Origin: Candidatus Iainarchaeum sp.
GTDB taxonomy: Archaea > Iainarchaeota > Iainarchaeia > Iainarchaeales > UBA10219
DNA: 64,000 nt
Reading direction: 5' to 3'
NCBI GenBank assembly: GCA_018304425.1
Contig: JAGVWE010000004.1
Span: 96,001 to 160,000, forward strand
The translations under genes were made by a program, and so were the position numbers. The notes below the pieces were generated by a model. It did no database searches. It saw only the letters and a list, made by a program, of their open reading frames with translations, and was not told the origin of the DNA. Of the stretch, positions 32,908-36,522 are shown one piece after another; position 1 is the stretch's first letter; the number at the start of each line of letters is the position of its first letter.

Positions 32908-34731
32908 TTACACCTTGTCCCCGATTTTCAGTTTGGGGTTGACTCCCAACGCCTTCAGCTCGTCCAACAACAACTTGAACCCGTAACTCATCTCAACGGG
33001 GTACACCTTGGAGCCGTCGCAGATCGCGCAATACTTCTTGTTCCGGATCTGGTCGTTGATGCCGATGACCCCGCACTTCTCGCAGACCAGTTCGATGGCC
33101 TTGTCCGAGTCCTCGATGAGTTTCTCGTGCAAGAGCATTGCGGCACCGTGGCCCACCAGGGTCTCGCCTTCCATTTCACCGAAGCGGAGGCCTCCCTCTT
33201 TTTCCTTTCCCTCGGTCGGCTGCCGGGTGAGAATCTGCACCGGGCCCCGTGACCGGGCCTGCATCTTGTGCGCGACCATGTGGAACAGCCGCCGGTAAGC
33301 CACGACCCCGGTAAAGATTTCGCCTTCGACCCGTTGCCCGGTCGTGCCATCGTAGAAGACTTCCTTGCCGTCCTCCCGGAAACCGTGTTCCTTGAGGATA
33401 TCGGCCATTTCCTGCCTATCGCTTGCCGCGAACGGCGTGCCATCCACTTCCATGGCCTTCAACGAACCGGCCTTGCCTGCCAGCATTTCCAGCAGGTGCC
33501 CCATCGTCATACGGCTTGGCACCGAGTGCGGGTTCAGGATGAGGTCGGGCTTCATGCCGTCCTTCGTGAAAGGCATGTCCTCTTCGGGGATGATGGCGCC
33601 AATGACTCCCTTCTGGCCGTGCCGGGAACTGAACTTGTCGCCCAGCGCGGGCACCATCTCGCTCCGGATCTTCACCTTCACCAGCTTGTTGCCAGACTCC
33701 CCCTCCGTGACAATGACCTTGTCGACGAAGCCGTGCTTGTTCTTGCGAATCGTGAGACTGCTTTCCCGTCTCTTTTCCTTGACCACGCCGAACTCCGAGA
33801 TTTCCTCCAAGAACCTTGGCGGGGACGTCCGGCCCATGATGGCCTCTTTTTCCTGGACAAAGGACTCGACTCTCGGCAGGCCGTCCTCGGACAAGTGCTT
33901 GTAGACTTCCGGGCCCATGAACCCCACTGTTTCCTCGACCGGCACCTCGAACTTGTCAATCTGCCCGCCCGGATACCGGTTCTCGGCCGCCTCATACGTG
34001 CGAAAGTAAGCGCTCCTGGCCAGGCCCCGGTCAATGGCTCCCTTGTTCAACACCACGGCATCCAAGATGTTATACCCATAATACGGCATGATGGCCACGA
34101 CAAAGTTCTGGTTCGTGGGCCGCTTGTGGAGTTCCAGGACATCCATGGTCTTCGTCTTCACCAGCGTTTTCTGGGGATAGTACAGCAGATAACCCTCCGT
34201 GTCCGTGCGCAGGTTGTAGTTGATGCCGCTCAGGCCCTGGGCCTGCTTGAACATCTTGGCCCCGTGCAAGGCCTTTCCAGCCATGTTGTGCTGCAAGTAG
34301 GGAATCATGGACGTGATGACCGATAGGATGCCGATGGCCGCAACCTCGATGTGCGTGTGCTCCTTCGACAACTCCTCTTCACCAGTCGCAATCAAGGCGT
34401 TCTCCTCTTCTTCCGCGTCCAGGTACTCGATGACGCCCGCATCCACGAGGTCCTGCCAGGCAAGCTTGCCTTCCCTGACCTGCTTGAGTATCTCCTCGGT
34501 CAGCTTGGGCTTGCCGTTCTCGACCACGATGAGCGGCCGCTGCACCCTCCCCGAGTCCGTGTTGATGTAGATTTCGTTCGTGTCCTCGTGGAACGCGATG
34601 TTGACGGAGGGCACGATTTTCCCCTGCCGCCGCCGCTGCACCAGGTCGTGCACGAGCTTCTCGCCGCTGGGGTGGAACCCAATCAGGCGGCCATTGATGT
34701 ACACCCTGGACTTGCTTTCCTTCGCGCTCAT
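32908..34731 (-). CDS. rpoB1: RNA polymerase subunit B'
   Basis: GDKFSSRHGQKG, PSRMT, RQPTEG, GGLRFGEME, Zn ribbon. Confidence 0.98.
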   Translation of the reverse strand: MSAKESKSRVYINGRLIGFHPSGEKLVHDLVQRRRQGKIVPSVNIAFHEDTNEIYINTDSGRVQRPLIVVENGKPKLTEEILKQVREGKLAWQDLVDAGVIEYLDAEEEENALIATGEEELSKEHTHIEVAAIGILSVITSMIPYLQHNMAGKALHGAKMFKQAQGLSGINYNLRTDTEGYLLYYPQKTLVKTKTMDVLELHKRPTNQNFVVAIMPYYGYNILDAVVLNKGAIDRGLARSAYFRTYEAAENRYPGGQIDKFEVPVEETVGFMGPEVYKHLSEDGLPRVESFVQEKEAIMGRTSPPRFLEEISEFGVVKEKRRESSLTIRKNKHGFVDKVIVTEGESGNKLVKVKIRSEMVPALGDKFSSRHGQKGVIGAIIPEEDMPFTKDGMKPDLILNPHSVPSRMTMGHLLEMLAGKAGSLKAMEVDGTPFAASDRQEMADILKEHGFREDGKEVFYDGTTGQRVEGEIFTGVVAYRRLFHMVAHKMQARSRGPVQILTRQPTEGKEKEGGLRFGEMEGETLVGHGAAMLLHEKLIEDSDKAIELVCEKCGVIGINDQIRNKKYCAICDGSKVYPVEMSYGFKLLLDELKALGVNPKLKIGDKV

Positions 34732-34929
34732 TTAAGCTTCACCCGCCACAACTGCCGAGGCGTCAGTTGGCACCGCATACGGCCGCCCCATCTCGCTGCT
34801 GCTCGATGGGGCATAAATATCTGCCGAGGCGTCAGCCGAGTAGGCCCCCATGGGGGTTGACACCGCAGGCATGCCCCATTTCGCCCCGAAGGGGTTCGAT
34901 GGGGCGGTAGGCTTATTGGCCAGCGTCAT
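34732..34929 (-). CDS. Putative 65-aa bridging ORF carrying two element copies
   Basis: ATG overlaps rpoB'' stop (ATGA), TAA abuts rpoB' ATG; TAPSNPFGAKW resembles TVPSSPFGARW of 12922-13020. Confidence 0.5.
   Translation of the reverse strand: MTLANKPTAPSNPFGAKWGMPAVSTPMGAYSADASADIYAPSSSSEMGRPYAVPTDASAVVAGEA
34752..34910 (-). repeat. Intercistronic element copies C (34873-34910) and D (34785-34812) with 15-nt direct repeat
   Basis: GCCCCAUC-GA-...-GA-[AG]AUGGGGC twice; ctgccgaggcgtcag at 34752-34766 and 34821-34835. Confidence 0.8.
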
Positions 34930-36392
34930 TTCAATTTCACTCCCATGTCCCGCAACATCTTCTCCACCGGGCTTTCATCGGTTTCCGTGGTTACCTCCGC
35001 CAACAAGGCGAGGTTCTTGACCAGCCCACACTGCGGGCCGTCCGGGGTCTCGATGCAGCAGAGCCGGCCCCAATGCGTTCCATGCACGTCCCTGGCCTCG
35101 TACAACTCCCGGTTCTTGTCCAGGGGAGACTTGACCTTCCGCAAATCCGTCAACGGACTCAAATAATTCACGCGGTCCATGAACTTGCTCACACCGGTTG
35201 CCCTGCCAATCCAGTTGCCGGTGCTCATCGCGAACCTAATTCTCTCCGTTATCGCACCGGGCCTCACCACCGTGCTGATGTTCAGCTTCCTTCTCCGGGT
35301 AACGGTTCGGTCAATCTGGAACTTCAAGTCCTTGATGAAGTACTTGAACGAGTACCGGAACAGGTGCTCCATGAGCTTGCCCGACAACTCAAGCCGTTTG
35401 TTCGCGTAGTGGTCCTTGTCGTCGTCTTCCCTGAGGTTGCTGGCCCGTTCAATGGCCTTGGTGGCCATCATGACCAGGTAATAGGCCTTGGCCAGCCGGT
35501 CCTTGGGCTCCTGGCCGATGTGCGGCAACAGGAAGGCGTCCACGACTTCCTGCGCGCGCTTCAACCGGTATTCCTCGACCTGGCCGGGGGCCACGAACTT
35601 CCCGATCTTGTCCAGGGCCTCTTCCTCGGTCTTCACCTGCAGGGTCTCCAGGTTAATCAAGGCATCGTTCTCGATTTCCTTCGGCCCGCCCTCAAAGGCT
35701 TCCATGATTTCCCGGTCGTTTTTGAGGCCCAGCGCCTTCAACAACACGAACAACTTGAGCTTCCTCGGCGAGGCCGGGAAGGTGACGTTCAACGTGCCGT
35801 CCGGGTTCCGCAGGATCCTGACGCGGCCCTTGAACGCGCCCCGCGTCGAAATCACTTCCGCGATGATCTTGTCCTGTGCCTGCTTGGACACGAGCACACG
35901 GTCCGAGGCCAGCACTTCCTGGGTCATCAACGCCTTCTCAGAGCCGTTGATGATGAAATAACCGCCAAAGTCCTTGGGGTCCTCGCCCATCTCGACGAGT
36001 TCGTCCCCGGTCTTCCCGTTCAACCAGCACCGGTTCGACTTGAGCATGATGGGCAGTTCCCCGATGTACGCCCTTTTGACGTCCTGCTCCACATCCCGCC
36101 GCAGCAACCGCATCGTCAAGTAAATGGGCGCCGAGTAAGTCCGGTTCCGGATGCGCGCCTCCATGGGGTAGAAGTTGGTGCGCGGGCTCCCGTCGGCTTC
36201 CACGATTTGGGGCCGGCCCACCTCGATTTTGTCCAACTCGATGCGGACTTCCTCGATTTTGGGCACGATCTGCTTGTTTTCCTCGACGATTTCGTCGAGC
36301 TTCTTGTCCAGGAACTGGTTGAAGCTGTCAATCTCCATCTGAGCAAAATTCCGGTTATGGAAATAGGATTGTACGAGCGGCCAATTCTTCAT
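34926..36392 (-). CDS. rpoB2: RNA polymerase subunit B''
   Basis: PMEARIRN.TYSAP, GGYFIINGSE, DHY.NKRL, ETPDG..CGLVKN; start MKNWP after GAAGGAG. Confidence 0.97.
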   Translation of the reverse strand: MKNWPLVQSYFHNRNFAQMEIDSFNQFLDKKLDEIVEENKQIVPKIEEVRIELDKIEVGRPQIVEADGSPRTNFYPMEARIRNRTYSAPIYLTMRLLRRDVEQDVKRAYIGELPIMLKSNRCWLNGKTGDELVEMGEDPKDFGGYFIINGSEKALMTQEVLASDRVLVSKQAQDKIIAEVISTRGAFKGRVRILRNPDGTLNVTFPASPRKLKLFVLLKALGLKNDREIMEAFEGGPKEIENDALINLETLQVKTEEEALDKIGKFVAPGQVEEYRLKRAQEVVDAFLLPHIGQEPKDRLAKAYYLVMMATKAIERASNLREDDDKDHYANKRLELSGKLMEHLFRYSFKYFIKDLKFQIDRTVTRRRKLNISTVVRPGAITERIRFAMSTGNWIGRATGVSKFMDRVNYLSPLTDLRKVKSPLDKNRELYEARDVHGTHWGRLCCIETPDGPQCGLVKNLALLAEVTTETDESPVEKMLRDMGVKLK

Positions 36393-36522
36393 TCCAACTA
36401 ACTCCTTCAACCTTTCTCCGCGAAAAGCCCCGAAGGGCAGGTTGCGGCCGTTCAAAGCCGCAACCGAGGTGGTTAAACCAATCCAGTTCAATGGTTTGGA
36501 GTTGGTTCAATCAATGCAATGA

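Follow-up and report, generated by a model that had tools for sequence, protein, structure and literature searches.

Termination-reinitiation coupling through overlapping ATGA/TAATG junctions is a feature of archaeal and bacterial operons. At such native junctions the overlap is direct. The bridging ORF described below likewise has its start codon within an ATGA overlap and its stop codon immediately in front of the following ATG, while its coupling would be relayed by a 65-codon filler frame derived from an insertion. The MJRE palindromic repeats of Methanocaldococcus jannaschii, reportedly described by Suyama, Lathe and Bork in 2005, are said to be repeats 'with coding potential'. The Iainarchaeal element is likened to these as an archaeal palindromic repeat able to lie within coding sequence; lineage and sequence differ. 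REPs are linked to a RAYT gene and, to our knowledge, generate no target duplication (TSD). The Iainarchaeal element departs from them in both respects, and its repeats do not flank a single-copy Y1 (RAYT) gene as would be expected of a REP/REPIN-RAYT system.

Described elements of a comparable kind include: (i) the RPEs of Rickettsia (Ogata et al. 2000), which are palindromic repeats found as in-frame fusions within conserved genes and also in stable RNAs, as set out in the relevant sections of PMC10969869 and PMC2229807, and for which the TSD status is given as '?' in Table 1 of the latter, (ii) the YPAL/RU-2 elements of Yersinia (De Gregorio et al. 2006), which are GC-neutral with internal inverted repeats and variable target duplications of 3-26 bp in the section of PMC2229807 that deals with them, and (iii) MITEs, for which a section of PMC11602168 gives typical target duplications of 2-10 bp.

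The element considered here lies between rpoB'' and rpoB', the genes for the two halves of RNA polymerase subunit B, in Candidatus Iainarchaeum sp. (G000; 1.48 Mb in 7 contigs, 58-59% GC, 92.6% complete). The stretch of this genome that was analysed, termed the window, is 64,000 nt in length. Among named genomes, G000 is closest to Candidatus Iainarchaeum MAGs, one of which, archaeon GW2011_AR10 (CP010424.1, G016; AR10 below), is complete. Like the RPEs as described in parts of PMC10969869 and PMC2229807, the Iainarchaeal repeats are short palindromes of a small genome that occupy intergenic and stable-RNA sites and that can lie in frame inside conserved protein genes, which are not destroyed and keep a usable frame. 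By contrast with RPEs, to which it has no sequence relation, the Iainarchaeal element is archaeal, GC-rich and modular, with two hairpins, long target duplications in several cases and a strong association with tRNA genes. It resembles YPAL/RU-2, as portrayed in part of PMC2229807, in that it is not AT-rich, has internal rather than terminal inverted repeats, has target duplications of variable length and would be co-transcribed or co-translated with neighbouring genes. Its duplications, however, are as long as 30-66 nt, with a tendency to terminate at ORF boundaries, and the host domain and sequence differ from those of YPAL. Classical MITEs and REP/REPIN sequences are similarly non-autonomous, multi-copy, hairpin-forming and lineage-specific. 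In place of the fixed short target duplication of MITEs (2-10 bp in the consulted part of PMC11602168) the Iainarchaeal element has long and variable ones, and terminal inverted repeats of at least 10-15 bp are lacking, as the unit ends are GCCTACCG... and ...CAGTTG with the palindromes internal. A literature search of article text found no published description of such repeats in Iainarchaeota or Diapherotrites. The archaeal MITE census (PMC11602168), in the part consulted, names other DPANN genomes, and its supplementary tables and sequence files may list elements of this lineage.

The spacer between the rpoB halves is probably an insertion scar, composed of two tandem units of a two-hairpin repeat restricted to a lineage of Iainarchaeota and carried as a filler frame that preserves coupling. 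What is notable in the rpoB copy is the combination of a junction duplication with a relay ORF.

Organisation of the rpoB''-rpoB' spacer

By Pfam assignment the minus-strand gene order is rpoH, rpoB'', rpoB', rpoA' and rpoA''. The spacer coincides with a 65-codon ORF (Table 1). The ATG of this ORF lies within an ATGA overlap (34926-34929) with the TGA stop of rpoB'', and its TAA abuts the ATG of rpoB' (TAA then ATG at 34729-34734), i.e., the ORF has the form of a relay in which the start overlaps the upstream stop and the stop abuts the downstream start.

Table 1. Coordinates of the spacer, its flanking genes and two related hairpins in the window.
Feature	Position	Strand	Evidence
rpoB'' (N-terminal half, RNA polymerase subunit B)	34926..36491	-	Pfam Rpb2 domains 1-3
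rpoB' (C-terminal half, subunit B)	32908..34731	-	Pfam Rpb2 domains 4-7
65-codon bridging ORF	34732..34929	-	ORF list; spans all 198 nt of the rpoB''-rpoB' spacer
Left copy of duplicated junction (GGAGTGAAATTGAAATGA)	34926..34943	-	Direct repeat and AR10 comparison
13-nt filler (CGCTGGCCAATAA), left duplication to unit 1	34913..34925	-	Alignment of five unit-1 copies
Repeat unit 1 (CTACCG type)	34821..34912	-	Covariance-model match, E=8e-14
Repeat unit 2 (ATATTTATG type)	34745..34820	-	Covariance-model match, E=4.4e-5
Right copy of duplicated junction (GGGTGAAGCTTAAATGA)	34728..34744	-	Direct repeat and AR10 match
Copy B hairpin, L3-L4 spacer	12942..12988	-	Model match, E=3e-16
Copy A hairpin, L23-L2 spacer	11512..11558	-	Model match, E=3.5e-14

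The original prediction had placed two hairpin copies in the spacer, and both are present on the minus strand, copy C at 34873-34910 and copy D at 34785-34812. The 15-nt direct repeat that accompanied them in that account is exact (34752-34766 and 34821-34835, minus strand), and copy B, said to lie 22 kb away, is located between the L3 and L4 genes at 12950-12986, 21.9 kb from the spacer. C and D had been taken for one element, which is upheld by a whole-genome search in which both match a single covariance model. Two features had no part in that account: the exact 65-codon ORF and a degenerate junction duplication that brackets the spacer.

Unit 1 consists, in order, of hairpin C (34873-34905), a linker, a small CCCCCAUGGGGG hairpin and the second-hairpin module CUGACGCCUCGGCAG (34821-34835), and its homologues are found in the leaders of tRNA-Pro and tRNA-Arg and in the E2 gene. 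Unit 2 is ordered as hairpin D (34785-34812), the linker CGTATGCG and a second hairpin, CCAACUG-ACGCCUCGG-CAGUUGUGG (34746-34770), which includes the second copy of the 15-nt repeat (34752-34766). This unit aligns with the rpoB spacer of AR10 and with two tRNA leaders. Since 34821-34912 and 34745-34820 are each homologous to separate repeat copies, the spacer is best described as two tandem units of a modular two-hairpin repeat. The left junction copy contains the final codons of rpoB'' and their stop, the former start codon of rpoB' and a GGAGTGA that resembles a Shine-Dalgarno sequence; the filler that follows shows no homology with the other copies in the alignment of five unit-1 copies. 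The right junction copy provides the TAA of the bridging ORF and the ATG at which rpoB' now starts, together with a GGTGA that resembles a Shine-Dalgarno sequence.

The repeat family and its genomic sites

A relaxed search with the hairpin core recovers 5 copies in the genome, one of which is fully stem-compensated (CCUGUU/AACAGG vs CCCAUC/GAUGGG), and BLAST with the surrounding sequence reveals a mosaic of common modules at many loci. A strict stem-GA-stem-loop regular expression is too noisy (36 matches vs 15-31 in shuffles), and a covariance model (R1), built from 11 G000 copies aligned across 47 positions, was used in its place. In a whole-genome search R1 has 22 matches at E<0.01, distributed over about 20 loci. 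Compensatory changes occur in 6 of the 13 stem pairs of the 11-copy alignment, in which 94.3% of cells are paired; the observed covariation score is reached by none of 500 shuffles, and no slid register comes near. The outer stems of 48 distinct copies, drawn from several genomes, are Watson-Crick in 379 of 384 cells, the remainder being 2 G-U and 3 C-A.

The family is defined by a covarying outer stem of 8 bp, preceded by TAYTACCG, CTACCG or TATTTATG on the 5' side and followed by CACGYNYG or CGACGTATG on the 3' side, and copies C and D both conform to this definition. The 15-nt repeat represents the second-hairpin module of the family (CAACUG-loop-CAGUUG) and is present in both units as CUGACGCCUCGGCAG; its pattern occurs in 9 genome copies, compared to 0 in mononucleotide shuffles. 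The bare 10-mer GCCCCATCGA is weak evidence alone (10 matches with at most 1 mismatch vs 7.2 expected), as is the single-sequence fold of the spacer relative to shuffles (z = -1.9 sense, -2.4 antisense); with a modest z on both strands, folding energy alone identifies neither strand nor function. Rfam gives 0 matches at the gathering threshold in the whole window and chance-level matches only, with E up to 10, at 34650-35000. In family f17, which contains AR10, the hairpin is a plain 8-bp stem with a GAA-type loop, while the G000 hairpins carry additional palindromic layers that appear to have grown at the tip.

The sites of the copies were assigned with gene calls from a self-trained codon model, which recovers the rpo and r-protein operons, and with tRNA calls from ARAGORN and Rfam. 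Nine of the 20 G000 loci fall within about 140 nt of a tRNA gene. When tabulated by orientation, as had been recommended, 15 of the 20 loci are sense to a neighbouring gene and 5 are antisense, and 5 of the 20 lie in sense orientation between two protein genes that run in the same direction. One copy lies in frame in the inter-domain linker of a 455-aa E2 acyltransferase, where the reading frame stays unbroken to the end of the catalytic domain; this is the type of site known from RPEs, i.e., in frame within an intact conserved protein gene. In an alignment of the E2 orthologues of 7 relatives, the linker varies too much for an exact empty site to be delimited.

Copies A and B reside in ribosomal-protein operons. 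Copy B is inside a bridging ORF of 32 codons, which stops at a TGA that forms GTGA with an overlapping GTG start, and copy A is inside a 33-codon bridging ORF, has the covarying stem CCUGUU/AACAGG and shares with copy B a 34-nt 3' module that is 100% identical. Among 5 close relatives, L23 and L2 are joined by direct stop/start abutment or overlap in 3 and by hairpin-free spacers of 33-46 nt in 2, and the L3-L4 spacers are about 25 nt or less in 4. The hairpin was not seen at L23-L2 in any of the 5, nor at L3-L4 in the 4 relatives with a clear junction. Model matches occur in only 10 of 121 sampled genomes of the order, including 5 of the 6 genomes of f17.

Other features were noted at or near these sites. 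An antisense copy lies between a 397-aa gene and secE (G000 C4:189486-189704), where a 20-codon GTG-started ORF on the gene strand ends 6 nt before the secE ATG. A second repeat family abuts the 5' or 3' ends of G000 tRNA genes (C1:37090-37140, C5:170520-170545, C4:155245-155330 and C1:296900-297060); its members are perfect palindromes of the form AGGCCTTTTGTAAAAAGGCCT, after which come GCGAAAA and another hairpin. Two tRNA genes with a repeat copy beside each, L038:134-265 (-; 132 nt) and L084:70-238 (+; 169 nt), were found by the Rfam tRNA model and missed by ARAGORN, and presumably have long introns. A 1296-codon open frame at 9896-13786 (+) of the window covers the entire ribosomal-protein operon on the opposite strand. 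This frame is a codon-bias shadow ORF rather than a gene and is rejected by the codon model. The L23 ORF (11593-12084, -) encodes 163 aa from its first ATG, with an N-terminal extension of ~75 residues rich in Lys, Ala and Gly that is either real or due to an over-called start.

Junction duplications and the bridging frame

The two halves of rpoB overlap or are spaced by no more than 22 nt in 18 of 28 loci of the order, and the spacer is at most 25 nt in 43 of 69 named Iainarchaeum loci. The G000 element sits in a former ATGA stop/start overlap, with a junction of about 15-17 nt present on both sides. The left flank of the spacer reads GTGAAATTGAAATGA and the right flank GTGAAGCTTAAATGA, and the duplication is degenerate, with 12 of 15 positions identical between 34926-34940 and 34728-34742. 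The right copy matches the 3' end of AR10 rpoB'' at 15/15 positions, while the rpoB'' end of G000 itself has drifted at synonymous sites.

A comparison of the spacer across relatives had also been suggested. AR10 has a spacer of 100 nt, flanked on both sides by GAGTGAAGCTTAA, that carries a homologous unit 2 at the same site; the blocks in common are ATATTTATG, the covarying stem, CGTATGCG, TGCCAACTG and CAGYTG. By contrast, G040, a member of f17 like AR10, is without the insert. Thus, ancestry shared between the AR10 and G000 inserts requires a loss, or else the events were independent. Logan contigs of four DNA runs were compared with 33800-35900 of the window; a 600-nt contig corresponds to the exact filled allele and a 165-nt contig to a diverged element copy, and an empty junction is bridged by none of these few contigs.

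Duplications of the rpoB'' 3' end, of 13-30 nt, are present at 5 of 23 other loci with spacers of at least 45 nt, a result matched in 0 of 200 shuffles. Two of them are exact over 30 and 29 nt, a third of 30 nt has 3 mismatches, a fourth of 23 nt has 4 mismatches, and that of AR10 is exact over 13 nt; the duplications of L173 and L174 look like one event. From these duplications the junction has been struck at least three more times besides the AR10/G000 insert, by independent hairpin inserts with 23-30-nt duplications in other Iainarchaeum MAGs. Elsewhere in G000, exact flanking repeats of 12, 25+ and 35+ nt are observed. Only 3 of the 20 G000 loci exceed the 95th percentile of 300 random loci by a strict flanking-repeat score, so that target duplications are demonstrable for a subset only. 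The lengths in G000 are 10, 12, 15-17, 25+ and 35+ nt, and many loci have none. In at least 7 clear cases the inner edge of the duplication coincides with a stop codon (+0 to +4) or a start codon, a position not obviously produced by selection alone.

Further rearrangements were seen at individual loci. At G000 C1:15700-16500 (L078) the beginning of a 396-aa gene, some 66 nt counted from the ATG, is duplicated beyond an antisense copy, which leaves a diverged pseudo-start upstream of the gene. Two tandem element copies with an 88-nt period are found at G019:C1:176156-176284 (L050/L058), each preceded by the same 19-23-nt stretch (ATGAAATTGAAAGAATGAA) that forms the start of the downstream gene, i.e., the element plus its target duplication has been duplicated again. 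In G031 (C1:160753-163749) the match to rpoB'' is broken, with residues 29-501 followed ~1.5 kb later by residues 487-521 in one 1001-aa frame, which may reflect an intein or other large in-frame insertion near the rpoB'' end. The rpoB''-rpoB' spacers of L100 (Ca. Iainarchaeum andersonii; 315 nt) and L151 (246 nt) are AT-rich rather than composed of hairpin repeats, and look like small hydrophobic coding ORFs between the rpoB halves.

All 5 sense copies at operon junctions are traversed by an ORF that runs from the ancestral start to a stop within 8 nt of the next start. The chance of an open bridging frame by dinucleotide shuffling is 0.19-0.40 for each copy, with a product of 0.002, a post hoc statistic in which copies A and B share sequence and, thus, are not independent. 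The element is GC-rich and all three of its frames are fairly open; the rpoB'' frame also stays open across the spacer. The bridging frame is the same as that used in the E2 copy (PTAPS..GTPAV..AAYSADASA), where its translation is certain. In AR10 the equivalent bridging ORF has 32 codons and ends with a second VKLK directly before the stop.

The codon score of the 65-codon ORF is -0.04 compared to 0.25 +/- 0.10 for genes, which places it below the 5th percentile of genes, and is above the scores of the other two frames. The 65-aa product matches no Pfam family. A 1-nt difference in hairpin length shifts the AR10 frame downstream; the nucleotide blocks are conserved between the two genomes and the peptide is not. 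The 65-residue peptide is, by this comparison, apparently not under selection. Because bridging ORFs are found at 5 of 5 junctions and the peptide is unconserved, the 65 codons are read as a probable relay frame that keeps termination-reinitiation coupling. The duplicated junction holds a Shine-Dalgarno-like motif, a stop and a start; thus, the left copy is predicted to keep the native rpoB' initiation region and the right copy to rebuild the stop and start before rpoB'. The Shine-Dalgarno argument draws on the enrichment of GGTGA upstream of called genes (5.3% of the 1323 genes with enough upstream sequence vs 1.1% background), as the conserved 16S 3'-region motif needed for an anti-Shine-Dalgarno check was not found in the assembly.

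Origin and maintenance of the insert

According to the proposed mechanism, ribosomes leaving rpoB'' would start at the native rpoB' initiation region kept by the left duplication, translate the 65-codon filler frame through the hairpins, terminate at the TAA that abuts the rpoB' ATG and then reinitiate. Coupled, balanced synthesis of both B halves would, in this way, survive the insertion, and the 65-codon peptide itself would be without function. Insertions at essential operon junctions would persist only with a bridging frame. A mobile element tolerated only where translational coupling is preserved was one of the two readings offered originally. Its core stands, given that target duplications flank several copies and that bridging ORFs are found; the word 'only' does not hold for the family at large, since most copies sit where coupling is irrelevant.

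The other reading offered was a signal common to ribosome and RNA polymerase operons. A shared cis-regulatory RNA of this type, in which one factor-bound hairpin co-regulates ribosomal-protein and RNA polymerase operons, would account for the covarying stem and for the location of 3 of the 4 window copies in information-processing operons in sense orientation. The proposed regulon is nonetheless unsupported by the roughly 20 loci as a whole, as 9 are beside tRNA genes, in leaders and trailers, 5 are antisense and one copy is internal to the E2 ORF. The hairpin is, moreover, missing from L23-L2 in all 5 relatives and unseen at L3-L4 in the 4 clear ones, the model matches just 10 of 121 genomes of the order, Rfam has no match, and G-U pairs (2 of 384) are unusually rare for a structure selected in RNA. 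The distribution of copies and their absence from the r-protein junctions of relatives largely refute a conserved regulon signal, and a regulatory RNA is considered highly improbable; the spacer element looks like selfish DNA rather than a common control signal. A genuine small protein gene, which would encode a new RNA polymerase-associated or linker polypeptide of 65 residues, is harder still to credit. While the ORF has perfect coupling signals at both ends and outscores the other two frames, its codon score and lack of a Pfam family speak against a gene, its AR10 counterpart follows another frame past the hairpin and has only few residues in common with it, the ORF is absent in 18 of 28 loci of the order, and its sequence is made of repeat units that are also present at non-coding sites.

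Exaptation of the insert as an RNA or DNA module, e.g., as an internal rpoB'-rpoA promoter, an mRNA processing or stability hairpin or a tRNA-maturation leader, is unlikely but draws on several features of unit 2. The ATATTTATG box of this unit resembles a TATA box, the block is invariant in 4 of 4 aligned unit-2 copies including that of AR10, and two unit-2 copies abut tRNA gene 5' ends. Three ATATTTATG-type copies, however, point to tRNA 3' ends, so that there is nothing obvious to promote at these sites, and tRNAs with the CTACCG type have TTTAAA-type boxes of their own upstream of the element. The near-perfect Watson-Crick palindromes and the orientation bias (15 of 20 loci sense) would also suit a REP/RAYT- or IS200/IS605-type system, in which the hairpins serve as ssDNA substrates of the Y1 (HUH) transposase of the genome, and G000 does have one Y1_Tnp gene (C1:81-437). 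The hairpins that flank this gene are unrelated to the repeat, with no model match nearby, and Y1_Tnp is present in 5 of 10 model-positive vs 30 of 111 model-negative genomes but not found in the complete AR10 genome or in G085, which is the most copy-rich. As established for IS608, Y1 transposition is not known to yield a target duplication, unlike the flanked copies observed here; a Y1 system is, on this balance, very unlikely. The search for mobility genes covered RVT_1 (reverse transcriptase), Cas1 and Y1_Tnp; among these three families it found neither RVT_1 nor Cas1 in G000 (92.6% complete), and no IS with ends that match the repeat.

With the spacer read as an insertion scar, the manner of insertion can be considered. 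Target duplications as variable as 10-66 nt would point to the repair of widely staggered breaks rather than to a classical transposase cut, and the nearly wobble-free stems would point to a palindrome at the DNA level. Such stems are more in keeping with a palindrome that matters as DNA, or with synthesis templated by one arm, than with a structure formed in RNA alone. An undescribed mode of DNA insertion is suggested tentatively, as a possibility with clearly less than even chances, in which a new enzyme would introduce a wobble-free palindrome at an ORF edge and duplicate 10-66 nt. The duplicated gene end, with its stop or start, would rebuild overlapping or abutting essential genes on both sides, even where RNA polymerase B is split, and the host would carry the element as a relay frame that is translated. 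Known transposition chemistry does not explain why long duplications repeatedly terminate at the edges of ORFs, and these offer a tractable lead to a new insertion mechanism.

If this reading is correct, selfish DNA is able to colonise the most constrained sites of a reduced archaeal genome, among them the rpoB split, r-protein operons and tRNA leaders. The host would survive the insertion because the target duplication rebuilds the stop, ribosome-binding site and start and because the element stays readable. A consequence for annotation is that small 'hypothetical proteins' of DPANN MAGs may be insertion scars where they separate rpoB'' from rpoB' or one r-protein gene from another, and unusually long spacers at rpoB or r-protein junctions need not be regulatory.

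The Y1 transposase gene of G000 is of the IS200/IS605 type and sits at a contig end (C1:1-700), between GC-rich hairpins of its own that are unrelated to the repeat family.
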